A DNA stretch of 40,952 nucleotides from a virus (lineage: Duplodnaviria > Caudoviricetes), in IMG/VR virus record IMGVR_UViG_3300021082_000062, positions 1-40,952 of that record; one strand, written 5' to 3'. The translations under genes were made by a program, and so were the position numbers. The notes below the pieces were generated by a model, which was not told the origin of the DNA, searched no databases, and worked only from the letters and a program-made list of their open reading frames with translations. Shown here piece after piece: positions 1-40,952 of the stretch. Numbering within the stretch: position 1 is the stretch's first letter; every line of letters starts with the position of its first letter.

Positions 1-365
1 TGGGCAACGCGCCTCTGATTGCCGTTGCCGCCGCCTGGGGCGCGGGCCGCGTGGCGCTGTCTGCCAATGGCGGGGCGGTCCAAACAAGCGGCCTGACCGG
101 CTTGCCCACCGTCAACCGGTTGGTGCTGGGTTGGGGGTTTGGTGGGATAGGGCCGTTGCAAGGCTACCTGCGGTCGGTCGCATACTACCCGCGCGCCCTG
201 GCAGACCATGAGCTAATCGCGGTGACATACAACCCCGGTGCCACGCTACTGCCTGCACCAGAGCCGCCCGTGATCGACAACGAGCTACCCACGCCGCCAC
301 CAGCGCGGCCTGACAACGAGCTACCCGAGACGCCGACACCGAGAGGGCGACGCAATGGCCGGTAG
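1..365 (+). CDS. C-terminal part of head-fibre/LamG-like protein starting at 39785 (wraps around)
   Basis: Frame from position 3 is open; ends GYLRSVAYYPRALADHEL, typical of concanavalin/LamG-like phage fibre C-termini, then Pro-rich tail with two DNELP repeats. Confidence 0.8.
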   Translation, partial: GNAPLIAVAAAWGAGRVALSANGGAVQTSGLTGLPTVNRLVLGWGFGGIGPLQGYLRSVAYYPRALADHELIAVTYNPGATLLPAPEPPVIDNELPTPPPARPDNELPETPTPRGRRNGR

Positions 366-783
366 CGCGACAGTCTACGTTGAGCGCGGCGTGCTGGGGC
401 ACACGCTGGCCTATACGGCGATGCCGGCGCCCGCTGCGATCTACATCGGCTTGTGCCAGGCCGACCTGCCACCCACCGCGGCGACCGGCGGCACCGAGGC
501 GGCCGGCAACGGCTATGTGCGGATGCTGGCCACGTTCGCGCTCACTGCAGATCCGGACGAGACGATCGCCGCCAACACCGCCACCATCGAGTGGCCGGCG
601 GCGACCGCAGCCTGGGGCACGCTCGGGTTCTTCGAGCTGTGGGACGCCGTGACGGCGGGCCAGCGGCTCTACTGGGGGCCACTAGTCGATCCGGTGGACG
701 GTATCACGCCGATCACCCGCGCCGTCATGGGCGGCGACATCGTGCGGCTCACTGCCGGGACCGTCCAAGTGCAGGCGATCTGA
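355..783 (+). CDS. Small virion/tail-associated structural protein
   Basis: YIGL...GGTEAAGNGYVR...N.ATIEWPAATAAWGTL..F.LWDA.T.G.RL pattern common in phage tail clusters; overlaps upstream stop. Confidence 0.7.
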   Translation: MAGSATVYVERGVLGHTLAYTAMPAPAAIYIGLCQADLPPTAATGGTEAAGNGYVRMLATFALTADPDETIAANTATIEWPAATAAWGTLGFFELWDAVTAGQRLYWGPLVDPVDGITPITRAVMGGDIVRLTAGTVQVQAI

Positions 784-7484: not shown

Positions 7485-7849
7485 CAGACGACGAAAAGGC
7501 ACGACGCCTCGAGCGAGCGCTGGCACACGCCGGCAACACGCACACGCCTGCAGATGTGCTGGACCGGGTGCGCGAGGGGCGCGCGCGATGCTGGCCCAAC
7601 GGGGACAGCGTGGTGATCACGGAAGTACTCGTCTTCCCGCGCCTGCGTGTCTGCAATTACTGGCTCGGCGTCGGCAATCTGCGCGAGTGCTCTGACCTGC
7701 AGCCGGCGATCGACGCGTGGGCCATAGAGCAGGGCTGCAGCGTGGCTACGTCAACAGCGCGCATGGGATGGCTGCGCGTGATCAAGACGCCGCTCGGCGA
7801 AGGGTGGCGGCCCGCTGGCATCAAATACACGAAGGATCTGAGGTCATGA
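7481..7849 (+). CDS. GNAT-like small protein preceding ejection proteins
   Basis: WAIEQGC....ARMGW pattern and conserved position between nozzle and ejection genes. Confidence 0.55.
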   Translation: MTDDEKARRLERALAHAGNTHTPADVLDRVREGRARCWPNGDSVVITEVLVFPRLRVCNYWLGVGNLRECSDLQPAIDAWAIEQGCSVATSTARMGWLRVIKTPLGEGWRPAGIKYTKDLRS

Positions 7850-8988
7850 GCGGCGGCGGTGGCGGGGGCCAGAACACCACAACCCAGAACAGCAACGCGT
7901 ATATACCGCCCTGGCTCGAGGCTGCGGGTGCGGGTGCGGTGGAACGTGCCACCAACCTGAGCAATCAGGCCTATACGCCATACACCGGACAGACGATCGC
8001 CGGCTTAGATCCGGCGCAGCAGCAGGCCTACGCCCAGGTGCAAGGCATGCAGGGCATGGGCATGGGCGGCTACAACAGCGCCCTCGGCGCCCAGCAGCAG
8101 CTCGCTAACCAGGCAACGCCCCTATCTGCCGCCGGCATCCAGGGCAATGCCGATACCCTGCAGCAGGGGTTCAACAGCAACGTCTACAACCCCGCGGCCG
8201 GGCTGCTCGGCAACTTCGCCAGCCAGGGGCCAATGACAGCGCAGGGCGTCGCCAGCAACGCGCAGCAGCTTATGAGCCCCTACACGCAGTCGGTGATCGA
8301 CCCGGCGAACCAGCTGATGCAGCAGCAGCTGCGGTCCAACCTCAACACGATCGGCGCCGGGGCGAACAGCGCTGGCGCATTCGGTGGCAGCCGGCAGGGC
8401 GTGCAGGAAGGTATCGCGCAGTCACAAGCCGCGCTGGGCAGCGAGAAGTATCTGGGCGACATGCTCAATCAGCAGTGGGGCAACGCGCTGACGCAGGGCG
8501 GCAGCATCGCGCAGTATGGCGCGCAGCAGGGCCTCGCCGCGAATACCACGCTGGCCAACCTGCTGCAGGGTGGTTACGCCGGCAACCAAAAGCTCGGCGC
8601 GGACATCATGAACCAGAACCTGACTGCCGGCCTGAACGCAGCGCAGCAGCTGCCGCAAAGCCTGGCGGGACAGCAGGCGGCGATGCTCGGCCAGGCCAAC
8701 GCGCTGAACCAGGCAGGCGGGCTGCAGCAGCAATACCAGCAGAACATCCTCAACGCACAGCAGGGTGCTTTTGCACAGCAGCAGGCATTCCCCTACCAGC
8801 AGCTGCAGACACTGCTGGGCGCGGTCAGCGGCATCCCCTACAGCACGAGCAACACAGGATATCAGCAGGACTACAGCCCGATGTACTCAAACCCGTGGGG
8901 CCAGGCGATCGGCGGCACGGCGGCGCTCGGTGGCCTGGCCAGCGGCGTCGGCAACATCCTCGACAACAACCAGGCGGGGAACGCGTAG
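7846..8988 (+). CDS. DNA ejection / internal virion protein 1
   Basis: MSGGGGGG start, Q/N/G/A-rich, MSPYTQSVID and GAFGGSRQGVQEG motifs typical of podovirus ejection proteins. Confidence 0.75.
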   Translation: MSGGGGGGQNTTTQNSNAYIPPWLEAAGAGAVERATNLSNQAYTPYTGQTIAGLDPAQQQAYAQVQGMQGMGMGGYNSALGAQQQLANQATPLSAAGIQGNADTLQQGFNSNVYNPAAGLLGNFASQGPMTAQGVASNAQQLMSPYTQSVIDPANQLMQQQLRSNLNTIGAGANSAGAFGGSRQGVQEGIAQSQAALGSEKYLGDMLNQQWGNALTQGGSIAQYGAQQGLAANTTLANLLQGGYAGNQKLGADIMNQNLTAGLNAAQQLPQSLAGQQAAMLGQANALNQAGGLQQQYQQNILNAQQGAFAQQQAFPYQQLQTLLGAVSGIPYSTSNTGYQQDYSPMYSNPWGQAIGGTAALGGLASGVGNILDNNQAGNA

Positions 8989-9699
8989 ATGGCAGACGGC
9001 GGCGTAGGCGAAGCGGCCCTCATCGCTGCGGCGGCAGAGAGCGCCGCGGCGGCCGGCGGCACAGCGGCGGCCACGGCTGCGGCGGTCGCGGCGGCTGAAG
9101 CGGCGGCGACCGCAACGGCGGCTGGTGCCACAGCTGCAGCAGTGGCGCCGGAAGTGGCAGCTGCAGCCGCGCCCACACTGGCACTCGCTGCGCCAGAGGC
9201 GGCGGCGGTCGCCGCGCCAGAGGCGGCGGCAGAGGCCGCGCCCGCGTTTTTCAGCACGACGGCCGATCCGCTGCTGGGCTCTGCGGTGCAGGGCGGCACC
9301 GTAACCGACGCTTCGCTACTAGGCCCCACCACTGTCGCGGCTGACGCGCCTCTCGCCACCCCGTCCGGCGTCACGGTAGGCACCGAGGCGTTCGGGCCGC
9401 CAACGGATGCAGGCCTGCTGGGCAACTGGTGGAACCAGGCGACGCTCGGCGAGAAGCTAGGTGCCGGCGGCAAGCTGCTGTCTGGCGTCAGCGGCGCCAA
9501 GGGGCTGGCGAGTGCAGCCAGCACGCCAGCCAAGGGATCAACGAACCAGATCCGGCCCGGCACCACGGGCAAGCCAACGGGCGGCGAGCAGGCGCTGGCG
9601 CAGATCGTGGACGCCATGCTGAAGAGACGCGATGCGTATCAGCAGGGCCAGCTGGGCGGCGTGCCGGTGGTCTATCGGCCGCGCGGACTGTTGGGGTGA
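8989..9699 (+). CDS. Ala-rich internal virion / ejection protein
   Basis: Abuts upstream stop; low-complexity Ala-rich N-half; ends RPRGLLG. Confidence 0.65.
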   Translation: MADGGVGEAALIAAAAESAAAAGGTAAATAAAVAAAEAAATATAAGATAAAVAPEVAAAAAPTLALAAPEAAAVAAPEAAAEAAPAFFSTTADPLLGSAVQGGTVTDASLLGPTTVAADAPLATPSGVTVGTEAFGPPTDAGLLGNWWNQATLGEKLGAGGKLLSGVSGAKGLASAASTPAKGSTNQIRPGTTGKPTGGEQALAQIVDAMLKRRDAYQQGQLGGVPVVYRPRGLLG

Positions 9700-9702
9700 G
9701 CC

Positions 9703-11685
9703 ATGCCAATCGGTGACGAGCAGTGGGTACAGGACCAGATCGACGCGCAGCTGGCGCAGCCGCCGGTCGAGATGCCAACCATGCGCCGCGGCTCGGCCGA
9801 CGATGGCTCACGCCCCGGCTGGCTAGGCCTGCTCGGTGAGGCGTTGGGTGGCGGGCAGTCGCCAGGCTACAGGCTACGCGGGCACGAAGAGGGCGCGGCC
9901 GGGTCCAAGGCCTTGCTCAATTTCGGCATCAACATGCTGCTGGCGAGCGGGCCGCAGCGCACGCGGCCGGACCTACTGACGGCCGCCGCGACCGGCCTGC
10001 AGGGCGCGCAGCAGAGCCTGGGCGCTGACCAGCAGGCAGCACAGGCGCAGGCGCAGGCGGACTACAACCAACAGCTCGGCGTGGCGAAGTTCGGCCAGCT
10101 GCAACAGCACGCCCAAGTCGAGCGGCTCAAGGCCGTGATCCCGCTGCTGCAGCTGCAGCAGAAGAGCAAAGAGCTGGCCGGTCTAAAGGGCGGCGACACG
10201 ACGGCCGCCCCGGCTACTGCGACCGGCGGTGATCTGCCGGCCGACAAGGCGGCGGCGCTCAAGGCGATCGCGCAGCGCGAGAGCGGCGGCGATCCCACCA
10301 TCCTCAACTACGTTGCCCAGCAGGACCCGACAGCCTACGCGCGCGGCGCCACGGCCTCGGGCAAATATCAGATCGTCAACACGACATGGCGCGAAGGCCT
10401 GCAGCTCGCGGGGCTCGATCCTACGAAGTATGCCACGGCGCGCGATGCACCAGAGGCGGTGCAGGATCAGGTGGCGAGCGTGCTGTGGGACAAGTACGGC
10501 AACAAGCCGTGGCAGAAGGGCGCTAAGGACTGGGTCAAGGACGAGAAGGGCCAGTATCAGCTGGCGACCGTCCGCCCGCCCAACCAGCCCACCGCCGCGC
10601 CCGCAGTGACTGGCGGCACCAAGGTCGCAGGGCCGCCTGGCGTGGTGCAGCCTGGCGCTGGCACTACACCACCAGCTGCAGCGCCCGCTGCGGGGCCTGG
10701 CGCGGGGTTCACGTTCGTACCACCGACCGGCCCGGCATATAGCCCCGAGCTGCCGCCCGAAGTGCTCGCCGATTACCAGCGGCGCATGAAGGCCGCGACA
10801 TCGCCGGACGACTACAACAAGGCCGCGCAAGAGCTGGCCACGGCGAAGCAGAAGCAGGCGCACGACGCGGCAGCGCTACTCGCCACCGAGCGCGATCGGC
10901 AGCAGAAGGACTGGGCCGCACAAGCGCGCCCGGCGACCGACGCTGACCTGGCAGCGCACGGCGTCCCGCGTGAGCAGGGCGTGACCTACACGCTCGACAA
11001 CAACGGCAAGCTGTCGATGAACGCGACGCCGCTGGACCCTCGCCTGGTGCATATGGCCGAAGCGGACCAGAAGGCGTTCCAGACGCAATACGCCGACAAA
11101 TACCACTCGATCCTCAAGATGCGGCCGATCCTGTCCGAGATGGAATCGCTGCTGCACCGCGTCGAGGCAGATCCGAAGTCTGGCCAAGGCGGCATCGGCG
11201 CAGAGTATGCCCGCAAGGTTAATGGCGTGCTGGTGTCGCTCGGCCTCGCGTCGCCGCAACTCACCGAGGCACACGGCGCGCAGGAAGCATACTCTGCGCT
11301 CGCCAATTCACTGACGCTGGCCATGAAGTCGGGCATATCCATGGGCTCGGTGTCCGACCGCGATCTGGCATTCCTCGAGGCGAACACGCCCGGCCTCGCG
11401 ACATCCCCCGCCGGCCGGCGCCTGCTGATGGGCGGCCTGCGGCAGATGTGGGATTACCAAGAGCGCCTCTACGACCTGGCGGCCGACACGATCCGCCAGC
11501 GCCCGCACACGCTCGCCGGGTTCAGCGACAAGGTACGCAATCTGCCAGACGCTATCCCGCTCGCGCCGGACCCCAGCTCGAGCCCCGCCGCGCTCACGGC
11601 GTGGAAAGAGAAGTACAAGCCTCGCGTCGGGCAGACCGTCTACCGATCGCATGACGGCACGATGAAAGTATGGGGTCAGGGCTGA
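9703..11685 (+). CDS. Ejection protein with SceD/Rpf-like lytic transglycosylase domain
   Basis: LKAIAQRESGG...ASGKYQIVNTTW...APEAVQDQVA..LW...G.KPW (about 10250-10515) matches the SceD/Rpf transglycosylase motif set with catalytic Glu in RES. Confidence 0.8.
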   Translation: MPIGDEQWVQDQIDAQLAQPPVEMPTMRRGSADDGSRPGWLGLLGEALGGGQSPGYRLRGHEEGAAGSKALLNFGINMLLASGPQRTRPDLLTAAATGLQGAQQSLGADQQAAQAQAQADYNQQLGVAKFGQLQQHAQVERLKAVIPLLQLQQKSKELAGLKGGDTTAAPATATGGDLPADKAAALKAIAQRESGGDPTILNYVAQQDPTAYARGATASGKYQIVNTTWREGLQLAGLDPTKYATARDAPEAVQDQVASVLWDKYGNKPWQKGAKDWVKDEKGQYQLATVRPPNQPTAAPAVTGGTKVAGPPGVVQPGAGTTPPAAAPAAGPGAGFTFVPPTGPAYSPELPPEVLADYQRRMKAATSPDDYNKAAQELATAKQKQAHDAAALLATERDRQQKDWAAQARPATDADLAAHGVPREQGVTYTLDNNGKLSMNATPLDPRLVHMAEADQKAFQTQYADKYHSILKMRPILSEMESLLHRVEADPKSGQGGIGAEYARKVNGVLVSLGLASPQLTEAHGAQEAYSALANSLTLAMKSGISMGSVSDRDLAFLEANTPGLATSPAGRRLLMGGLRQMWDYQERLYDLAADTIRQRPHTLAGFSDKVRNLPDAIPLAPDPSSSPAALTAWKEKYKPRVGQTVYRSHDGTMKVWGQG

Positions 11686-14063
11686 TGGCAACAGCTGCAG
11701 AGTTCAAAGCCATCTTTGGGTTCGACCCACCCGATGGCGCAGTGAGCGGCCCGACGCCGGACGACCAGCCGCCGCCGGCAAAGGTCGCGCCCGTGGACGA
11801 TCGACCGGCCACGCCGGAAGAACGCCGCCTGTTGATGGATATACCGGCCCCGCCGAAGCCGCCCCCGCCCGAGGCCGTCAACGCGTTGAAGACGCCGTTC
11901 TGGAAGACCGGCGCCACAGAGCACGGCGGCGAGGCTGTGCCGATGCCGATGTTCCCCAAGACGCGCGAGGCGGTCACCAACGCAGTGACCGGCGATTCGA
12001 GCGTCGCGTATCCAGCCATCGGACCGTTCACCCCGTCCGGCCTCGGCCTCGGCGGCGGACCAGACGCCGGGTTCTGGACGCGTGTGATGGCGAACGCCAC
12101 CGACCCGCGCGCGCTGCGCATGCTCGGCCAGGCGATGACCAGCCGCGACCCGGCGGCGATGGAACGTGTGATCGCGGCCAACGTACCCGAGGCCAAGTTC
12201 GCGACCGACCCGCAGGGCAAGCGGATCGTGCAGGTGCCAGGCCACCCGCCGATGTATCTCGACCGGGGCGGCGTGATGGACCCCAGCAAAGCCGCGTTCT
12301 ATGCGCCGCAGACAGCCGTCGCCCTGGCGCAGCGCGGCAAGAGCATCGCCGGCATGGTATTCGGCAACGTGGTGCAGGACGCCGCCAGCACGGCCGCCAG
12401 CCACGCCGTGGGCGGCGAGCAGGAATGGATTGACCCGACATCCCTAGCCGCCACGGGCGGCATCACGGCGGGCCTGGGGCTCGCCGGCAAGGCTCTCGTA
12501 CAGGGCGGCAAGGCTGCCTACAACTACGCGACAGGCGCGCTCGACAACCTGCCCGGCAAGGAAGAGATCCGCGCCGCAGCTCGTCGCCTGATCGCGAAAG
12601 AGTTCGGGCACCAGCCCACGCTAGGGCAGGTTACCGGCAATCCGTATCAGCTGAAAAAAGAAGACTTGCTGCTGAACGCCAAGGCGTCGCCCGAGCAAGG
12701 GTCGCGCCTGCACGATCTACACGCGGCCAATGTCGAGGCAACCCAAACAGCCAAGACGGGCGTGATCGCCGAGGCGTCCGGCGCGGCGAAGCTAACGCCA
12801 GGCGCCCCGCCGGTAATCCCCAAGGGGTTCCAGGGCGACGAGCAGACGTTCGGCACGCAGATACTGGACAACGTGCGCGCCAAGCACGAGGCACTAAGCA
12901 CAGCTGAGGCGAAAGCCTGGGACGCATTGGGTGGCGGCAGCATCACCCCCACCAGCGCAGCCGGCCGCTCGGTAGAGTTCACCCAGGACGTGACGCACGA
13001 CGCGCTGGGCAAGGCCTACAAGACGGCGCTCGACAATTTCGGCCAGCCGATGGGGCCGAATGGAACGTTCTCTGCCGGCCAGTTGCGCAATGGCGGGCAG
13101 TCGGTGCGCGACGCACTCGACGTGCTGAAAACCTACACGATGAAGGAAGGCGACGCGGTCGGGTTCAATCTCGGGCACTACCGCGACATGCGCCAGCAGC
13201 TCGAGAACATCATACAATCCGCACCGACGCCCAACGTCGCGCGCATCGTACGCAAGATGAAGGGCGACCTAGACGATGCCGTCGCTGCGGCTGAGATCAA
13301 CGGGCACATCGTCGGCGACCCCGCGGCGCTGACCGCATTCCGCGAGGCGAACAAGGCAACGCGCGACAAACACGCATTCCTCAACCCGCGAGATAACGAC
13401 GCGGCGCAGGCATTCCTCGAGCGGGCGACGCATCAGATCGAAGGGCCAGGCGGCGCCAAGACGTACAGCATGGGCGGGCAGGAAGCCGTTGATAACGTGT
13501 TCGGCCGCAGCAATGTGGTGGACGCCGGCAACGGCACGATGGACATCCTGCGGCATTTCGGCACGCATCTCGGCAACGACAGCCAGGCGATCAAAGCGTC
13601 GCGCGGCCTGGTGACGAAGCGACCGCTATACGGCACGCGATCGCCTGGCGAAGAGGGCACCGAGATTGTCGGTGGGCCGCGATACGGCAGCACAGCGCAG
13701 AACCTCGACAACCAGCTGCGCGGCACCGGCAAGCAAGTGACCGAGCATCTGTTGCCGATCGAGATGCAGCTGCGCCTGCACAATCTCAAACAGGCGATGG
13801 ACACGCTCAATCGCAGCTACACGCCGTCTGGCCCGCGGCTGAACACGTCCGGCAGCGGCTACCTGTTCCAAGGCGCAGGCAATCTGCCGCTGCCGAATTT
13901 CGTCAAAGACATGCTGATGAAGTATGGCGCCGGGAAGAGCATCGACAACGCCATAGCCGGTGGACAACGTCGCGTGCTGGCCATCCCCGCCGGCCCCACG
14001 CCGGGCGTCGCGCCAGCCGCGCGTGTCGGTGGCCTACTCGGCAGCGAGGCGCTCATTCCCTAG
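11685..14063 (+). CDS. Large ejection / DNA transfer protein
   Basis: ~792 aa, TGATG overlap, last gene of the virion operon; PTLGQVTG motif seen in large podovirus ejection proteins. Confidence 0.7.
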   Translation: MATAAEFKAIFGFDPPDGAVSGPTPDDQPPPAKVAPVDDRPATPEERRLLMDIPAPPKPPPPEAVNALKTPFWKTGATEHGGEAVPMPMFPKTREAVTNAVTGDSSVAYPAIGPFTPSGLGLGGGPDAGFWTRVMANATDPRALRMLGQAMTSRDPAAMERVIAANVPEAKFATDPQGKRIVQVPGHPPMYLDRGGVMDPSKAAFYAPQTAVALAQRGKSIAGMVFGNVVQDAASTAASHAVGGEQEWIDPTSLAATGGITAGLGLAGKALVQGGKAAYNYATGALDNLPGKEEIRAAARRLIAKEFGHQPTLGQVTGNPYQLKKEDLLLNAKASPEQGSRLHDLHAANVEATQTAKTGVIAEASGAAKLTPGAPPVIPKGFQGDEQTFGTQILDNVRAKHEALSTAEAKAWDALGGGSITPTSAAGRSVEFTQDVTHDALGKAYKTALDNFGQPMGPNGTFSAGQLRNGGQSVRDALDVLKTYTMKEGDAVGFNLGHYRDMRQQLENIIQSAPTPNVARIVRKMKGDLDDAVAAAEINGHIVGDPAALTAFREANKATRDKHAFLNPRDNDAAQAFLERATHQIEGPGGAKTYSMGGQEAVDNVFGRSNVVDAGNGTMDILRHFGTHLGNDSQAIKASRGLVTKRPLYGTRSPGEEGTEIVGGPRYGSTAQNLDNQLRGTGKQVTEHLLPIEMQLRLHNLKQAMDTLNRSYTPSGPRLNTSGSGYLFQGAGNLPLPNFVKDMLMKYGAGKSIDNAIAGGQRRVLAIPAGPTPGVAPAARVGGLLGSEALIP

Positions 14064-27092: not shown

Positions 27093-27208
27093 TGGTTGTG
27101 AGCGATCTGGAACGCGCGCATTGCGTCGGCTGGGGGCGATATGAGTAGGTGGCGCCGTCTGCGCGACTGGCTGTGTCGCGAGTATCAGATACTGACGGGA
27201 CAACGCTG

Positions 27209-29761
27209 GTGAGTGACGCTGAGGCCCTGCCGATCGACTGGGGCGCGGCGATCGCGGGCAGCCAGAACCCGTTCCTCACCGCGATCACCAGATACGCGCG
27301 CGCCCCCGTGGCATTTGTGCGCGAGGTGCTGCACGCCGAGCCGGATAACTGGCAACTCGAGGCGCTGCGTGCGGTAGCCAGGGGACACACCAGAATAGCT
27401 ATACGAAGCGGTCATGGTGTAGGAAAGGCCATGACCATATCCAACAGTGTGGACACGCCGGACGGGTGCCGGCGGTGGGGTGATTTGCGGCCTGGCGACC
27501 GGTTGTTCGGGCGTGACGGCGAGGCGACGCACATTGTGGCGCGGCACGATCAGGGTGTGCGGGCGATTTACCGCGTGACGTTTGATGACGGCACGAGCTG
27601 TCGGGTTGACGGCGAGCATTTATGGACGGTGCGGGGTCGTGCGCAGCGGCGCGTTGATAACAAGCGGTCGCATCGCAGGGGTGTCGGTCGCACAGAGCAA
27701 CCGAGCGAATACGCTGCTGACTTCATCAACATTACTACTGCCGACATCATCCGCCGCGGGGTTAAGCGGGCGAATGGTGCGGCGTTGGCGCGGCAGTGGG
27801 AATTACCGGTGCACGGGGCGGTGCAGTATCCGGCGCGGGATGTGCCGCTGGCGCCCTATCTGCTGGGGGCTTTGCTAGGCGATGGCAGTCTTCGCAGGAC
27901 GACGCCTCTTCTGACAACGGCCGAGGCTACGGTGGCGCATTGGCAGGCGGCTGCGGATGCTGCCGGGGTCAGGACGACGCAATATACGTCGCCAGGGCGC
28001 ACGGCGGTGGCGCTTAGTCTGCTTGGCATTGCCGGGGCGTTGCGGGATCTTGGCGTGGCGGACTGCTTGTCGGCGTACAAAAGCGTGCCACGGCGTTATC
28101 TTGAGAACAGCCAATCGGTGCGACTGGCGGTGCTGCAGGGATTGATGGACACCGATGGCTACATCGATGACCGCGGTATTGCGGTTTTCACTTCCGTGTC
28201 GAAGCAATTGGCTGTGGACGTGGCGTGGCTGGTGCGGTCGCTAGGTGGCAAGGCGTTCATGGGGGACGCGCGGTCAAGCCACTATTACAAGGACGACGAG
28301 CGCATCCGCGTTCAGGACCATTACGACGTGACCGTGCGTATGCCGGTTGGGTTGGACTTATTCACTTTGCCGCAGAAGACGAAACGGATGCGGCCATGCC
28401 AGCCGCGTTATCTGGCACGCTGGATCGAGTCGATCGAGCCGGACGGCGAAGAAGAGGCGATGTGCGTCACGGTTGACGCTGCCGATGGGCTGTATCTGGC
28501 GAACGACTTCATAGTAACGCACAACACAGCGTATGCGGCTTGGCTGATCTGTTGGTTCGTGAACACGCGCGTGCCGTTCAAGGTCGCCGTGACGGCCCCG
28601 AGCAGCTCGCAGCTGTTCGACGTGTTGTGGCCAGAGCTGTTGAAGTGGTTTCAGAAGTTACCACCCGGTTGGGCTGGGCTGTGGGACTACACCAGCGACC
28701 ACATTACGCTGAAGGGCGACGCGGAATGCTTCGTCACGGCGCGCACATCGCGCAGCGATAAACCCGAGGCGATGTCCGGCATACACAGCACGCATGTGCT
28801 GCTCGTAGCGGACGAGGCATCGGGGATAGACGAGGCAGTATACCAGGCTGCCGGCGGCTCGATGTCGACGCCCGGCGCGATCACGGTACTTATTGGCAAT
28901 CCCACCAGAAGCAGTGGCACGTTCTACGCCGCGCACATGCTCGAGCGCGACCGCTGGTTCACGATGCGGGTGAGCAGCGCCGACAGCCCCAGAGTGACGC
29001 GCGGCTACGTCGAAGAGCTGGCGCAGCGGTATGGGATGGACAGCAACGCCTACCGCGTGCGTGTCCAGGGTGAGTTCCCGGCGGCTGACAGCGACACGTT
29101 GATCGCCGCGAGCCTGGTGGACGACGCCATGGCGCGGGACGTGGACATTGACCCCGATGCGCCGTGTATTTGGGGCGTAGACGTCGCGAGATTCGGCAGC
29201 GATGCGAGCGTGCTGATCAAGCGCAAGGGCAACGTGGTCATCGAGATGCCGAGACGCTGGCGCCAGGTCGATACCATGATGCTGGCCGGCGCGATCAAGG
29301 CCGAATACGACGCGGCAGGGCCGTATAAGCCGGCATTGATCTGTATAGACGTGATCGGCATCGGTGCCGGTGTAGTCGATCGTCTACACGAGCAAAATCT
29401 GCCGATTCTGGGCATAAATGTCGCCGAGGCGGCGTCTACGAGCGGCCGATTCGGGCGTTTGCGCGACGAATTGTGGTGTCGGTGCAAGGACTGGCTCGAA
29501 ACGCGCGCTGTGCGGCTGCCGCGCGACGAGCAGCTGCGGGATGATTTGGTTGCGCCGAAATACGCGTTTTTGAGCGACGGCCGGATGCAGATCGAGAGCA
29601 AAAACCTCATGCGCGCGCGTGGTCTGGCCAGTCCGGACGCTGCTGACGCGCTGAACCTGACATTCGCAGAGCAGGGCTTGGGAATTGCCAGCGGGATGAC
29701 TAGTGGCCTGCACGATTCGATGCCGATACGAATGGTCTTGTCGTCTGGTGACCTGGTGTGA
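27209..29761 (+). CDS. terL: Terminase large subunit containing an intein
   Basis: SGHGVGK/T Walker A split by intein, LLVADEASG Walker B, IGNPT, GVDVARFGSD and SPDAADAL nuclease motifs. Confidence 0.95.
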   Translation: MSDAEALPIDWGAAIAGSQNPFLTAITRYARAPVAFVREVLHAEPDNWQLEALRAVARGHTRIAIRSGHGVGKAMTISNSVDTPDGCRRWGDLRPGDRLFGRDGEATHIVARHDQGVRAIYRVTFDDGTSCRVDGEHLWTVRGRAQRRVDNKRSHRRGVGRTEQPSEYAADFINITTADIIRRGVKRANGAALARQWELPVHGAVQYPARDVPLAPYLLGALLGDGSLRRTTPLLTTAEATVAHWQAAADAAGVRTTQYTSPGRTAVALSLLGIAGALRDLGVADCLSAYKSVPRRYLENSQSVRLAVLQGLMDTDGYIDDRGIAVFTSVSKQLAVDVAWLVRSLGGKAFMGDARSSHYYKDDERIRVQDHYDVTVRMPVGLDLFTLPQKTKRMRPCQPRYLARWIESIEPDGEEEAMCVTVDAADGLYLANDFIVTHNTAYAAWLICWFVNTRVPFKVAVTAPSSSQLFDVLWPELLKWFQKLPPGWAGLWDYTSDHITLKGDAECFVTARTSRSDKPEAMSGIHSTHVLLVADEASGIDEAVYQAAGGSMSTPGAITVLIGNPTRSSGTFYAAHMLERDRWFTMRVSSADSPRVTRGYVEELAQRYGMDSNAYRVRVQGEFPAADSDTLIAASLVDDAMARDVDIDPDAPCIWGVDVARFGSDASVLIKRKGNVVIEMPRRWRQVDTMMLAGAIKAEYDAAGPYKPALICIDVIGIGAGVVDRLHEQNLPILGINVAEAASTSGRFGRLRDELWCRCKDWLETRAVRLPRDEQLRDDLVAPKYAFLSDGRMQIESKNLMRARGLASPDAADALNLTFAEQGLGIASGMTSGLHDSMPIRMVLSSGDLV
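27428..28525 (+). mobile_element. 366-aa intein (Ala1, WCT triad) with LAGLIDADG endonuclease
   Basis: Starts AMTISNSVDTPDG after GK, block B EHLW, LLGALLGDG and LQGLMDTDG, block F MCVTV, ends IVTHN/T. Confidence 0.95.
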
Positions 29762-34719: not shown

Positions 34720-35793
34720 ATGTCCGAGTCCACCTCGGCGCCGGCTGCCGACGCCCCCGCCACGCCAGCGCCGGCCAGTCAGCCCGGCATCAGCGTATCC
34801 GACGCCGCCCGCCTGCTAGGCCAGCAGCGACGAGCTGCACCGGCAGCCGCGCCGATCGCCCAGCCGGCCGCACCCGCCCAAGCCGCCCCAGATCGCAAGC
34901 CCAGCCCCAACGAGCTGATCGCCGCCGGGGCGAGCCCCCAGCCGGCACCCGCCGCGCCAGCCGCCCCGGCGCAGTCGGCGCTCGAGCGGGCGCTGGGCGT
35001 GCCAGCCGGCGAGCCGGCCAACACGAACCAGCCCGTCCAGCCGGTCGCCCAGATCGACATCGAGGGGCGCGCCTACACGCAGGCCGAGCTGCGCGAAGCC
35101 GTGCTGAAGAGCGCGGACTACACCGCCAAGACACAAGAGCTGGCGCAGGGCCGCCAGGCGCTCGCCCAGCAACGCCAGGCGCTCGACGCGCAGGCGCAGG
35201 CACTGCAGATGGTGCTGCCGTATATCCAGCCGGAATTGCAGCGCCTCGCCGAGAGCGTGAACCAGCAGGCGCAGATGCCCGACCCTGCGCTCGCCGAGTC
35301 AGATCCGGCGGCATACGTCCGGCAGCGCGCGCTATACGATCAGGCGATCGCCGAGCAGCAGCGCCTGGGCGGCCTGACGCAGCTGCAGCAGCAGGCGCAA
35401 GCGCGGGCGATGGAACAGGCCGTGGCGAACGCCAACGAACTGCTCGCCAGGGAATACCCGTTCTGGGCGGACCCGCAGGAACGTGCCACGGCGCAGGCGC
35501 AGATCGTCCAGTGGGCCACGACGCAAGGTGGTTTCGATCGGAACGAGCTGCGCAACCTGGCGTCAGCCCATCATCTCAAGACCATGATGAAGGCCATGGC
35601 CTACGACCGCTGGGTGGCCGGCGCCAAGACGACCGCGCCCACGGCATTGACCACAGCGCCCACGCGCGGTGTGCCCCCGCCACCGGCCCCGGCCGCGGCT
35701 GTACAGCAGGCACAGCAGGCGTTCGAAGAACGCGCCACGATCCGCTCGGGCGCGGCGCTGCTTGCCGCTAGGCGGGCCGCAGCGGGGCGTTGA
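34720..35793 (+). CDS. Scaffolding protein
   Basis: EL....LKSADYTAKTQELA motif, coiled coil, position before MCP. Confidence 0.85.
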   Translation: MSESTSAPAADAPATPAPASQPGISVSDAARLLGQQRRAAPAAAPIAQPAAPAQAAPDRKPSPNELIAAGASPQPAPAAPAAPAQSALERALGVPAGEPANTNQPVQPVAQIDIEGRAYTQAELREAVLKSADYTAKTQELAQGRQALAQQRQALDAQAQALQMVLPYIQPELQRLAESVNQQAQMPDPALAESDPAAYVRQRALYDQAIAEQQRLGGLTQLQQQAQARAMEQAVANANELLAREYPFWADPQERATAQAQIVQWATTQGGFDRNELRNLASAHHLKTMMKAMAYDRWVAGAKTTAPTALTTAPTRGVPPPPAPAAAVQQAQQAFEERATIRSGAALLAARRAAAGR

Positions 35794-36092
35794 TGGCGTA
35801 TGCCGCAAAACCACTTCCGATCGGCAGTAGGATCGGGCGCCTTAAGGTCGTGGCTAAAGAGGTGTCAGGCGCTCGGCGCAGGACAATCTTGGTGCGCTGT
35901 GATTGCGGCACTGAGAAGATGATGCTGAAAGCCAACCTGACCGGAAAGCGGCCGGCTATGTCATGCGGCCATTGCAACAGCGGCCACCCGATACGTGCGC
36001 GGGCAACGCCAGAGGCAGTGGCGGCAAGGGTTGCCGGCAAATTGCGCAGGCGTGGGCGATTGGCATTTTATCGCAATCTATCCGACGATTGA
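35793..36092 (+). pseudogene. Homing-endonuclease N-terminal Zn/DNA-binding module without nuclease domain
   Basis: GSRIGRLKVV...VRCDCG...NL......SCG motif of HNH/AP2 endonucleases; ends after ~99 aa. Confidence 0.6.
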
Positions 36093-37313: not shown

Positions 37314-38039
37314 ATGGTCGCCATGACGTATGCTGTGGGGATGAGACATCCCCCCCCATGGCAGTCCCGTGTAGTCCAGCAGCAGTCTAATGACGGCTGC
37401 TGGCTTTGGCAGGGTCGTGTGGAACCTGGCGGACACGGTCAGGTAACCCGCGGCGGCAAGGTCTACCGCGTCCATCGCCTGGCCTGGGAAGATGCGTATG
37501 GTTCCGTACCTAGGGGCCATACCGTCACTCAGACATGCGGCATTCCGACATGCTGCAATCCCGCCCATCTCGTTCTGTCAACAATGGCAGAGCTAAGAAG
37601 ATCCGAAGCTACGCCCTGGCAGGACCGCCTGACTAAGCAGGCAGACGGATGCTGGATATTCCAAGGCGCCCGTTCGACCGACGGCTACGGCCAGGTCAGA
37701 CACGACGGCCGCACAGAGAGGGTCCACCGGCTCGCGTGGGAAGCCGCTAACGGCCCGATCCCAGCGGACATGCGCGTCTGTCATTCATGCGACGTGCCAG
37801 CTTGTTGCAACCCGGCACACCTCTTCCTTGGTACGCAGCAGGACAACGTAACGGACATGATCGAGAAGGGCCGTTTTAAGGGCCGCTCGTATCTCAACTC
37901 ACTAAAGACGCACTGTCCATACGGCCACGAATATACCACCGCTAATACCATGACCTACAACGGCATGCGCTCGTGTCGTCAGTGCATGAACGAACGGTCA
38001 GCCGCACACCATCGCCAAGCAAGGCGCAAAGGCCAATGA
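37314..38039 (+). CDS. Tandem HNH homing endonuclease
   Basis: Two GCW.W/F.G...G.V......RVHRLAWE...C..P.CCNPAHL units (first lacks the His) plus KTHCPYGH..N...CRQC Zn finger. Confidence 0.9.
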   Translation: MVAMTYAVGMRHPPPWQSRVVQQQSNDGCWLWQGRVEPGGHGQVTRGGKVYRVHRLAWEDAYGSVPRGHTVTQTCGIPTCCNPAHLVLSTMAELRRSEATPWQDRLTKQADGCWIFQGARSTDGYGQVRHDGRTERVHRLAWEAANGPIPADMRVCHSCDVPACCNPAHLFLGTQQDNVTDMIEKGRFKGRSYLNSLKTHCPYGHEYTTANTMTYNGMRSCRQCMNERSAAHHRQARRKGQ

Positions 38040-38359
38040 CCGCACCCCTATACGAGAGCTACAATCCCCAAACCCAGCGCGCCACCGAGGTCACAACGGA
38101 CCCTGACACCGGCAATCTGGTCTTCATACACAGCCAGAATACGCGCCCGATTATCGAATCCGCCAAGGCTCTGGCTGCGAACTTCGACCCACACGTTGCG
38201 CGCCCTGCGCATGGTTTCACACACGTTGCGCGCATCCCCCTGGTGATTTGGCGCGAGCTGGAACGCCTTGGGATCACGCAGGACGAGAAGGCCATGAACA
38301 AGTGGCTGGACGAACGCGACAACTCGGTGTTCCGCGTAGACGACAGAAGGAAGCTCTGA
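38036..38359 (+). CDS. Conserved small podovirus protein after MCP
   Basis: Q...PII..AK...HVARIP......L....I.......KWL...DN..FRV pattern. Confidence 0.75.
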   Translation: MTAPLYESYNPQTQRATEVTTDPDTGNLVFIHSQNTRPIIESAKALAANFDPHVARPAHGFTHVARIPLVIWRELERLGITQDEKAMNKWLDERDNSVFRVDDRRKL

Positions 38360-38360
38360 G

Positions 38361-38669
38361 ATGGCACAACCAACAAACGACAAGCACGACCCCCCGGCAC
38401 AGATGAAGCCGATGACGCCGCCTGCGCCAGCAGCGACCACAGTCCCGGTGGAACCCACGCTGCCGGATGACATGGACCGCGTGCTGCTGCTGCGCCTCTA
38501 TCCCGACCTCGGCTACGAGGAAGCGCGCGCCAAGGCGATCGCCGATGGTAAGGCTACCGCGGCAGCCGGCGCCGTGCTGGTGGCATCAGCGCAGAGTGAC
38601 GTCGTAGGCGCCGAGCCGCCGCCACCGCCACCGCCGGCACCGCGGTCTGACCATCCAGACAGGAAGTAG
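38361..38669 (+). CDS. Pro-rich hypothetical protein
   Basis: AAGGA RBS; operon context. Confidence 0.55.
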   Translation: MAQPTNDKHDPPAQMKPMTPPAPAATTVPVEPTLPDDMDRVLLLRLYPDLGYEEARAKAIADGKATAAAGAVLVASAQSDVVGAEPPPPPPPAPRSDHPDRK

Positions 38670-38679
38670 GGGCGGCCTG

Positions 38680-39345
38680 GTGCCCACGTACCAGATGCTG
38701 CAGGACGAAGTCGCCTCGTGGCTCAACCGCGCCGACATTTCCGACAAAATGGCCGGTTGGGTTGCGATGGTGGAAACCGAGATCGCGCAGACGTTGAGGG
38801 CGCGCTGCATGGTGGTGACGGCCAACCAGCCGATTGACGCGCCATACGTCACCATGCCGCCCGACTTCTGCACGATGGCGTCTATACGCGACGCCACCAC
38901 GGGCGAACTGCTCGAGCTTCGTGACGAGTGGTCGGGCCATTGGACGGGGCAACAGCACAACGTCTGGCGGGATGGCGCGATCGTCGGTGTGGGCACCCCA
39001 TGCACGGCCTACCGGCTGGTCGAGGATTGCATAGAGTTCCTGCCGCACCCACAGATCCCCGATCCGCCGGACCCCACCTGGCAGCCGCAGATCGTACGTA
39101 TGTCGTGGTATGCCAAGCCGGCGCCGCTACTGCTGCCCAGCGACACCAACACCGTCCTAGAGGCGCTCTATGGCGTCTACCTCTGGGGCTGTGTGCATCA
39201 GGGCGCGCTGTTCGAGTTGGACGACGACCGGGCCGCGCAGGCTGACGCGAAGTGGCAACAGGCTGTCACCCGCGCAAACTTGCACAAACAGCAGAGCGAT
39301 TATTCCGGCTCACCGCTTAGAGCAGAAATAGCGGCTAGTTTTTAG
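38680..39345 (+). CDS. Head-tail adaptor protein
   Basis: TY..L...VA.WLNR.D......V...E..I...LR...M, YVT.P.DF, Y......L......N.VL......YL.G pattern. Confidence 0.85.
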   Translation: MPTYQMLQDEVASWLNRADISDKMAGWVAMVETEIAQTLRARCMVVTANQPIDAPYVTMPPDFCTMASIRDATTGELLELRDEWSGHWTGQQHNVWRDGAIVGVGTPCTAYRLVEDCIEFLPHPQIPDPPDPTWQPQIVRMSWYAKPAPLLLPSDTNTVLEALYGVYLWGCVHQGALFELDDDRAAQADAKWQQAVTRANLHKQQSDYSGSPLRAEIAASF

Positions 39346-39347
39346 GG

Positions 39348-39785
39348 ATGCCTATGAGCATAGCTATTCCATGGCAGGACCGGGTAATCCCTGAGCCAAA
39401 TTCCGGCTGTTGGTTGTGGGACGGCGCGCAGGCATCAGGCGGCTATGGCAAGGTTACTCGTGGTGGGAAGCAATTCCGCGTCACCCGTCTGGCCTGGGAA
39501 GAACGACACGGGCCAATCCCATTAGGCCTGTTCGTCCTGCATCGTTGTGACGTTCCCGCATGCTGCAATGTCGACCATCTTTTCCTTGGCACGCTGCGGG
39601 ATAACGCGCGGGACATGGCGGCGAAGGGCCGCGTTGGTGGTGGATCACCACGACAGGCGACATGTAAATACGGGCACCCCTTCGATGCGGTGAATACCTA
39701 CATCAAGCCGAATGGGGACCGTCGCTGCAGACTTTGCGCCCGACTCTACCTTCGACAGTGGCATCGGGCGAGAAGGACGCCCTGA
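39348..39785 (+). CDS. HNH homing endonuclease
   Basis: PEPNSGCWLW.G...YG...VLHRCDVPACCNVDHLFLGT..DN..DM..KGR plus C..GH...C..C. Confidence 0.9.
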   Translation: MPMSIAIPWQDRVIPEPNSGCWLWDGAQASGGYGKVTRGGKQFRVTRLAWEERHGPIPLGLFVLHRCDVPACCNVDHLFLGTLRDNARDMAAKGRVGGGSPRQATCKYGHPFDAVNTYIKPNGDRRCRLCARLYLRQWHRARRTP

Positions 39786-40952
39786 TGGCATATCCCATGC
39801 TCTCGAAAGAGTCGGTTCGCTACCGCGGCGATGGCGGACGCGAGCACTGCAGCCTGTGCAGGCATTTCGAGTCGAGCCGCGGCGGTCGCTGCAAGCGCGT
39901 GCTCGGGCAGATCTCGCCACGCGGCTGGTGCCGCCTGTTCTCGCAAGAGGCGCGCGGGCTGATCGCTGACGTAGGCCAGGCGGCGATCGGCGGCGGCCCA
40001 TCGCTCGGCCTCGACTTCATGCAGCCCGGCGTGCTGGACCCGCGCATTACCTTCACCCGCGCGTCCACCGCCACGTATTTCGACAGCGCGGGCGTGATGC
40101 AGAACGCGGCGACCAACGCGCCGCGCTGGGACTATGATCCGGCCACGTTGGCCTTGCGCGGGCTGCTGATCGAAGAGGCGCGCACCAACGGCATCCCCAA
40201 CGGAAATGCTGTAGGCGCAGTGGTTGGCGGCACGCTGCCCACCGGCTGGGCCGAGTCCAACAACACCGGCATCGCCCCTGCGGTGACCGGCTTTGGCACA
40301 GAGAGCGGCATTCCATATGTCGATATCCGGTTCGCTGGCACCACGTCATCCGGCACCGCGAACAACATATACATTGCGAACGGCACAGTGCCGGCTGGCA
40401 ACAGTCAGGCGTGGACCGCCAGTGTTTATCTACGGCTGACTGCCGGAACGATGCCAGCCAACAGCGTCAGCGTGCTGGCAGCCAGTAACATCGGGCCACA
40501 CTACCCGCCAACGGTTACGCCAACCGGCGCCCCGCTTGTGTCCCAGCGTTATCTGAACGCCTTCACCACCGCCGCTAGCGGCGTGACATCGCTCAGTCTG
40601 ATCATCGGCATCTCAATGCCGCCCCTCACAGCAGTGGACTTCACGCTGCGTATTGGTGCTGCACAGCTAGAGGCCGGCGCCTTCCCGACGAGCTACATCG
40701 CCACGGCGGGCAGCGCGCAGACCAGGGCGCAGGACTACATGTCGATACCAACGGCTGGCTGGTATAGCACCACGCAAGGGTCGGTGGTCGCCAAGGTTGG
40801 TGGATTGTCCTGGAACGGTTCGGGCACGTTCAATAACGGCATATTTACGTTTGACGATAATGCCAGCAATCGGGTCAACGCGATCGACCTGATGGGGTTC
40901 ACTAACAACGGCACATACATACAGCCAAATATTGCTGTTGCTGTTGGTGGGG
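39785..40952 (+). CDS. Head-fibre/LamG-like virion protein with N-terminal HiPIP-like domain (continues at 1..365; ~510 aa total)
   Basis: TGATG-coupled ATG, no stop to window end; C22-x2-C25...C36...GWC49; then TFTRASTATYFD...PRWDYDP...GLLIEEARTN and QLEAGAFPTSYI.T....TRA.D motifs. Confidence 0.85.
   Translation, partial: MAYPMLSKESVRYRGDGGREHCSLCRHFESSRGGRCKRVLGQISPRGWCRLFSQEARGLIADVGQAAIGGGPSLGLDFMQPGVLDPRITFTRASTATYFDSAGVMQNAATNAPRWDYDPATLALRGLLIEEARTNGIPNGNAVGAVVGGTLPTGWAESNNTGIAPAVTGFGTESGIPYVDIRFAGTTSSGTANNIYIANGTVPAGNSQAWTASVYLRLTAGTMPANSVSVLAASNIGPHYPPTVTPTGAPLVSQRYLNAFTTAASGVTSLSLIIGISMPPLTAVDFTLRIGAAQLEAGAFPTSYIATAGSAQTRAQDYMSIPTAGWYSTTQGSVVAKVGGLSWNGSGTFNNGIFTFDDNASNRVNAIDLMGFTNNGTYIQPNIAVAVGG

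Follow-up and report, generated by a model that had tools for sequence, protein, structure and literature searches.

HiPIPs are exported bacterial electron carriers. Among them, PioC of Rhodopseudomonas palustris TIE-1 (PDB 6xyv, PF01355) is described as binding its cluster through Cys22, Cys25, Cys34 and Cys47, and HiPIPs are reported to receive the cluster in the cytoplasm before export (PMC7462912). Aromatic residues are described as shielding the cluster in HiPIPs (PMC10879576). Two further systems concern virions. The head-spike fibre of RcGTA, Rcc01080 (PDB 6tb9), is reported to bind the host capsule, with its residues 2-10 held in a pentamer of Rcc01079 on the capsid vertices (PMC7296036). 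Lambda gpL and the RcGTA hub are described as carrying a four-Cys Fe-S cluster on the outer virion surface, in a role that the reports leave open (PMC10721106, PMC7296036).

We have identified a gene that joins elements of these systems. Judged by homology, its product is a relative of the RcGTA head-spike fibre in which the anchor peptide is replaced by a HiPIP domain. The window, i.e. the whole stretch of 40,952 nucleotides that was analysed, is a phage genome in circularly permuted form, which CheckV rates as 99% complete. The phage is a SU10-like podophage with terminase, portal (PF23899), scaffold, capsid (PF17236), adaptor (PF24175), gp80 (PF23140) and ejection proteins, and the genome also encodes three tail-fibre-type genes and an integrase. 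The portal, capsid, adaptor and gp80 families are shared with the SU10/GP4-type module, which differs from the present one by a cassette inserted here between adaptor and gp80. The features of this region, in window coordinates, are as follows.

38680..39345, + strand: SU10-type adaptor gene (PF24175 E=4e-20, PDB 7z47), the upstream neighbour of the cassette in relatives
39348..39785, + strand: HNH endonuclease gene, an insertion that separates adaptor and fibre gene here; most relatives have none at this place
39772..39787, + strand: GAAGGA, resembling a Shine-Dalgarno sequence, and a TGATG in which the stop of the preceding gene overlaps the start (translational coupling)
39785..39949, + strand: HiPIP-like domain, residues 1-55, with Y13, C22, C25, F28, C36, W48, C49 and F52 and no signal peptide
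39950..40195, + strand: Gly-rich linker followed by the first half of the fibre's conserved 'hinge' module (residues 56-137), homologous to Rcc01080 from about its residue 22
40196..40663, + strand: variable carbohydrate-binding-module (CBM)-like beta-sandwich inserted in the hinge (residues 138-293)
40664..40738, + strand: second half of the hinge module (residues 294-318)
40739..40952, + strand: start of the LamG/concanavalin-like C-terminal domain (Pfam, Foldseek)
3..365, + strand: end of LamG and Pro-rich tail (residues 403-522), across the circular junction
355..783, + strand: GP4 gp80-like fibre bead protein, the downstream neighbour (PF23140 E=2e-26)

The open reading frame at 39785, absent from the annotation track, has the frame and motif given for it in the preliminary description. 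Its ATG (39785) overlaps the TGA (39783-39785) of the HNH gene, and GAAGGA is located 7 nt 5' of the ATG. The frame stays open through the window end (40952) and resumes across the circular junction, where 3-365 encodes residues 403-522 of the same fibre protein; the complete fusion protein (P0003) has 522 aa, with 13 codons missing in the gap that joins the window ends. The full HiPIP motif occurs once in the window and in none of 300 triplet shuffles, and the short form C-x-I-x3-GWC-x2-F had one occurrence across the 300 shuffles. The pattern C-x6-I-x3-GWC-x2-F is the short 'classic' signature of HiPIPs. Over 379 pairs of related domains, non-independent through common ancestry, pN/pS of the HiPIP domain was 0.20 in frame versus 1.8 and 2.2 in the shifted frames. 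A chance or shadow ORF is ruled out by the shuffles and the frame-specific pN/pS, and the HiPIP domain is translated in this frame under purifying selection. Translation from a later Met, which would leave the domain out of the protein, was also considered. The stop-start overlap or abutment at Met1 is kept in most of 14 relatives examined, including loci in which another gene separates adaptor and fibre (L007, L017, L083 and L093). A start at Met79 is ruled out because it would remove the strand aligned to Rcc01080 from residue 22 onward and because the Met1 overlaps are conserved; the Met1 start thus holds.

The HiPIP kinship first proposed from the motif was borne out by PDB, profile and ESM Atlas matches. 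All three PDB matches of the single domain are HiPIPs, PioC being the best (E=3.6e-4), and a 13-row profile aligned with PioC at E=5.9e-13 across residues 3-51, the top four of its seven matches being HiPIPs. Pfam HIPIP does match residues 1-55 (E=0.03), but at 15 bits, below the gathering score of 22; 11 of 13 family members match this model, weakly. The phage domain resembles PioC in its length of about 54 residues and in its four Cys, three of them at nearly the same spacing (positions 22, 25, 36 and 49, aligned with 22, 25, 34 and 47 of PioC), and these four are invariant in both the 106-row and the 30-row alignment. The aromatic cage of Tyr, Phe and Trp is also shared: Y13, F28, W48 and F52 correspond to PioC aromatics, with Y13 and W48 invariant. 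The Cys/aromatic pattern is complete in 135 of the 137 fused proteins, a set that counts the window's among them, and the other two have Met at F28. Unlike PioC, the phage domain lacks a Tat signal, is fused to a virion-type fibre, belongs to a phage late gene and is strongly basic, with a net charge of +7 for the HiPIP core of the window protein. The missing Tat signal, already remarked on for the window, is general, since no RR pattern stands ahead of the domain in the 135 motif-bearing fused proteins.

Structure prediction agreed in part. Residues 1-56 of an ESM Atlas model (pTM 0.74) match a HiPIP-family model at TM 0.80, both models being predicted, and also a mostly viral cluster of 132 members of 56 residues at TM 0.76. 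Two AlphaFold models, on the other hand, have no confident fold for the domain (pLDDT < 50 over residues 1-134 of the full protein and 51.8 for the domain alone), and Foldseek and VIA searches with the model of the lone domain returned no match. On the strength of the alignments, residues 1-55 are a PioC-type HiPIP relative, and the domain likely binds a [4Fe-4S] cluster.

The remainder of the protein had been called a phage head-fibre-type body, which agrees with its homology to Rcc01080. A 106-row body profile found Rcc01080 in the PDB at E=1e-38, and the single sequence of P0003 aligned over residues 66-329 to Rcc01080 22-286 (E=2e-7). For the better-modelled part, Foldseek returned CBM-type and LamG-type sandwiches (best E 2e-5) as well as phage lectin or fibre proteins. 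The LamG-like end that was suggested earlier is thus in agreement with Foldseek, but its Pfam match is weak (E=0.004) and below the cut-off. Because the alignment of the body begins at Rcc01080 residue 22 and the anchor comprises residues 2-10, the HiPIP domain stands at the anchor position of the solved fibre. Both proteins have a hinge with an inserted CBM and an N-terminal segment preceding the same body; the phage fibre differs by having a HiPIP in place of the Leu-Gly anchor peptide, which is missing, and by an additional LamG domain. Unlike RcGTA, the phage is a podophage rather than a gene transfer agent, its fibre is an optional one-gene cassette, and the companion-profile search recognised no base gene. 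Since the fusion protein has no Tat signal and no Leu-Gly anchor and stays below the Pfam cut-off, it was placed in neither the HiPIP nor the RcGTA-fibre family outright. One HiPIP fibre (L085:5980-6714) has lost the hinge module and has its CBM-like part attached directly. Lambda gpL and the RcGTA hub are a precedent for [4Fe-4S] in virion proteins; they are, however, core tail-tip proteins with a different Cys pattern and an oxygen-sensitive cluster, whereas here a HiPIP relative is on the predicted accessory fibre of a podophage.

The HiPIP-fibre fusion recurs in related phages, as had been anticipated, and was found in more than 100 proteins. All 24 candidates examined have it, 182 of 7992 longer proteins scored with a profile matched (best 120 listed), and the fibre body is present in 134 of the 137 fused proteins. 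Loci were also collected through the adaptor. Among the best 80 of 154 viral adaptor loci, found with a query from HiPIP-bearing loci and comprising partly redundant records, 43 have HiPIP and body, 2 have a HiPIP cut by the contig end and 35 have neither; a body lacking a HiPIP within 5 kb occurred at none of these 80. On a tree of 64 adaptors, presence and absence require 11 changes, 5 of which are forced by starred branches. Five complete cassette-less genomes were searched for the HiPIP domain or body elsewhere, and neither was found in 5/5, with positive controls recovered in 5/5; one 15-residue partial match at E=0.004 was returned. The gp80-like gene lies directly after the adaptor in most phages without the cassette, and a SU10-type adaptor adjoins the HiPIP fibre in 214 of 214 locus records, which are redundant. 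The HiPIP fibre is an optional one-gene cassette between adaptor and gp80 in SU10-like podophages, and an essential core protein is rejected by the absence of the whole gene from 35 of the best 80 adaptor relatives.

Conservation differs sharply along the cassette. Comparisons were made over 31 loci with complete genes, those with cut or double bodies being dropped. In 45 locus pairs with adaptors at least 85% identical, pairs that are not independent of one another, identity was 96% for the HiPIP domain, 97% for the capsid protein, 81% for the hinge, 41% for the CBM, 38% for LamG and 76% for gp80. Linkage to the neighbouring adaptor gene may account for part of the HiPIP identity; gp80 is farther from the adaptor than LamG, yet better kept. 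These identities are read as the pattern of a protein that keeps one end fixed for binding to the virion and exchanges the ends that bind receptors.

Other N-termini are found on the same body. Twenty-five distinct non-HiPIP bodies comprise 9 with RR-signal-like starts, 8 with GVAxF repeats and 8 others, and the N-terminus of the fibre body goes with the virion type. Bodies behind twin-arginine-like signal peptides (L026, L027, L031, L034, L039, L044, L046, L047 and L050) occur in phages with another capsid type and a signal-bearing small companion gene. Several GVAxF-x-W repeats, possibly a third kind of anchor, precede the body in loci that have no companion gene (L016, L020, L021, L024, L025, L035, L040 and L048). 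The small companion gene lies beside 14 of the 25 distinct non-HiPIP bodies, 11 of which lack it, and beside none of 62 HiPIP fusions. It was also absent from the window genome and five other HiPIP genomes in a search with a companion profile seeded from five non-HiPIP loci, for which the control was 3/5 and those 3 were among the seeds. In its size and position the companion resembles a spike base. Its identity with Rcc01079 was not confirmed: it had no PDB match and weak Atlas leads only, and no search tied it to Rcc01079. One HiPIP-less body was seen in a SU10-type locus (L089), where a second body is fused to a preceding gp80-like domain; gp80-like domains with long variable C-terminal passengers (500-1200 aa) occur at L206, L208, L214, L217 and L089.

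The HiPIP module also exists outside the fibre, in phages unrelated to this one. With a 30-row profile, 4555 representatives matched at E<=0.001, of which 703 reached E<=1e-10; cellular HiPIP-like proteins of the Tat type were among them, at E about 1e-14. Among the best 150 listed, 115 were new, which a crude rule split into 62 short proteins, 20 others, 18 fibre fusions and 15 Tat-type proteins. Stand-alone HiPIP genes of 58-62 residues lie near portal or terminase genes (L121, L122, L124 and L194), and a HiPIP-like domain precedes DUF3008 at L123. Internal HiPIP-like domains were found behind a short basic module in DUF2213 head proteins (L119:5722-7623 and L197:4803-5397); the portal of L119 also bears a histidine-phosphatase domain. 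The gene right after terminase has a HiPIP-like N-terminus at L189:4977-7277, L192:3243-5302 and L196:4986-7103. These proteins are probable portals, a reading supported by position and, for L189, by a match to phrog_1216 (E=2e-8), with no such support for L196. Another protein (L193:4248-5147) combines an HExxE-like N-terminal part with two C-terminal HiPIP-like repeats, the first degenerate, and has similar counterparts, e.g. P0191. The Synechococcus phage S-SRM01, a cultured phage, encodes a 67-residue HiPIP (QPX48026; L126:6959-7162) that scores 23.7 bits, above the Pfam cut-off, and its leader appears to resemble the T4 capsid-targeting sequence. A 10-residue capsid-targeting tag of T4 is described (PMC9958956, PMC10229621). 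With the exception of S-SRM01, the module lies within morphogenesis modules at all loci examined. A tblastn search with the window's domain against annotated phage records gave no match. In a tree of 203 domains (50 columns), 109 fibre-type rows, four of which lack a body match and were labelled fibre by hand, fall on one side of a branch with SH-aLRT 91 that is not starred. Fibre-type HiPIP domains are basic (+2 to +7), whereas other HiPIP-like domains range from -5 to +4.

It is hypothesized that the HiPIP domain, built round a structural [4Fe-4S] cluster, is a docking knob for an accessory adhesion fibre, a reading to which we give about an even chance. The protein would be made late, coupled to the neck genes, and the domain would receive its [4Fe-4S] cluster from the host cytoplasmic Fe-S machinery without export. 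Having no signal, it would remain in the cytoplasm and dock on the assembling particle, at a conserved surface of the virion that is more likely capsid than neck, and no separate base protein would be needed. The compact, positively charged knob would fasten an accessory sugar-binding fibre to the virion, and the swappable CBM and LamG domains would bind capsule or another surface polysaccharide in a first, reversible attachment. The cluster would be mainly structural, and its aromatic cage would make it fit for exposure to air once outside the cell. That the knob fastens the fibre is likely because the HiPIP domain occupies the anchor place of a solved, related fibre. The preliminary description had offered three functions, and its capsid anchor appears to fit best, given the anchor position, the capsid-like conservation and the link between N-terminus and virion type. 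A full HiPIP cage is, however, more than a mere anchor needs. A redox-responsive role, another of the three, may also apply. The oxidation state or integrity of the cluster might determine whether the virion retains the fibre or deploys it, a redox latch that we regard as quite improbable. With such a latch, the particle would tune attachment to oxic or anoxic surroundings, and the module, which also occurs on portals, proteases and mini-proteins, would act generally in phage particles as an Fe-S sensor and address label.

Stand-alone, portal and head-protease forms have no fibre to anchor, which speaks for a function of wider scope. Through the stand-alone and portal forms, two readings in which the domain does not anchor the fibre are real competitors. 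The first is a redox-active or protective passenger, in which the fibre is attached via linker or hinge and the HiPIP is an electron carrier, oxidant sink or iron store, with the same job as on portals, proteases and mini-proteins. The complete cage in nearly all fused proteins, the many short forms lacking a fibre and the restriction of the module to morphogenesis modules (S-SRM01 excepted) would all suit such a passenger. We nevertheless consider it unlikely, with no other anchor visible in a protein whose Rcc01080-like body begins about 10 residues past the domain, and with fibre-type domains forming one branch that has its own basic surface, as expected of a binding interface. The second would place the protein in the head interior, where the basic HiPIP would act as a loading tag by binding to DNA, to scaffold or to the inside of the capsid, and the lectin-like protein would be packaged and ejected. 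The domain is Arg-rich, its relatives occur on head-interior proteins (the probable portals and the DUF2213 proteins), and the cyanophage mini-HiPIP has the leader that we liken to the T4 sequence. This cargo role is rather improbable all the same: the solved homologue of the body is a fibre on the outside of the particle that binds capsule, CBM and LamG are exchanged in the manner of receptor-binding domains, and the gene has neck and fibre genes as its neighbours, the ejection genes being elsewhere (window 7717-14063).

The two remaining alternatives concern the cluster and the binding partner. The anchor role would be otherwise unchanged in a HiPIP-derived knot without Fe-S, whose four Cys bind Zn or form disulfides post lysis. 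CxxC pairs often bind Zn, and AlphaFold has low confidence for the domain; against this, the Tyr, Phe, Trp, Phe cage and the Cys spacing match PioC position by position, and the profile reaches the Tat-type cellular HiPIP-like proteins, so that we think this knot very improbable. Least probable of all is a receptor mimic, which had been offered at the outset as a domain that docks on host redox proteins; as a second receptor-binding module it would contact a host cytochrome or porin-cytochrome. The close likeness to PioC, the basic surface and the likely surface exposure speak for it, but HiPIP partners are reported to be periplasmic (PMC7462912) and the domain is at the virion-proximal end. 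Of the three functions first offered the mimic fits worst, since conservation of the domain goes along with that of the capsid genes, and it is the host-facing domains that are exchanged.

The use of a HiPIP on a phage fibre is real, recurrent and apparently undescribed: titles and the beginnings of abstracts yielded no paper on a phage HiPIP or on the fibre fusion, and supplementary annotation tables could list such domains. The docking knob, if true, would put the HiPIP fold to a new use and would attach a fibre to a virion in a new manner, by one gene and with no recognised base. A 55-residue, putatively cluster-bearing domain on a gene that is missing from close relatives makes the question of virion Fe-S directly testable. 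The finding is also relevant to the question of whether phage particles in the environment contain iron. As a small tag for display, the domain could be of practical use.

Several further observations were made on the genome and its relatives. Small conserved genes at 38036-38359 (g128) and 38361-38669 lie between capsid and adaptor whether or not a HiPIP fibre is present. As dedicated partners of the HiPIP fibre, g128 and g102 were rejected; g102 occurs in 39/39 HiPIP and 32/32 non-HiPIP loci that reach g128, and a PDB search with g128 gave no match. A domain scan of genome contigs for a host, too narrow in its scope, gave no match. Five MAG contigs were located through the adaptor, two of which carry the HiPIP-fibre fusion. 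The MAG taxa were not taken as the host because they are three unrelated taxa and the contigs look like binned phage contigs. Three HNH-type genes are within the morphogenesis operon (35790-36092, 37314-38039 and 39348-39785), and such genes often occupy the slot after the adaptor in relatives. The gene after gp80 (785-1240), which has no Pfam or PHROG match, encodes Gly-Tyr motifs and about three short repeats and is a candidate 'rope' for the gp80 beads. The terminase large subunit (27149-29761) contains a LAGLIDADG-like stretch at residues about 313-396, which is probably an intein.
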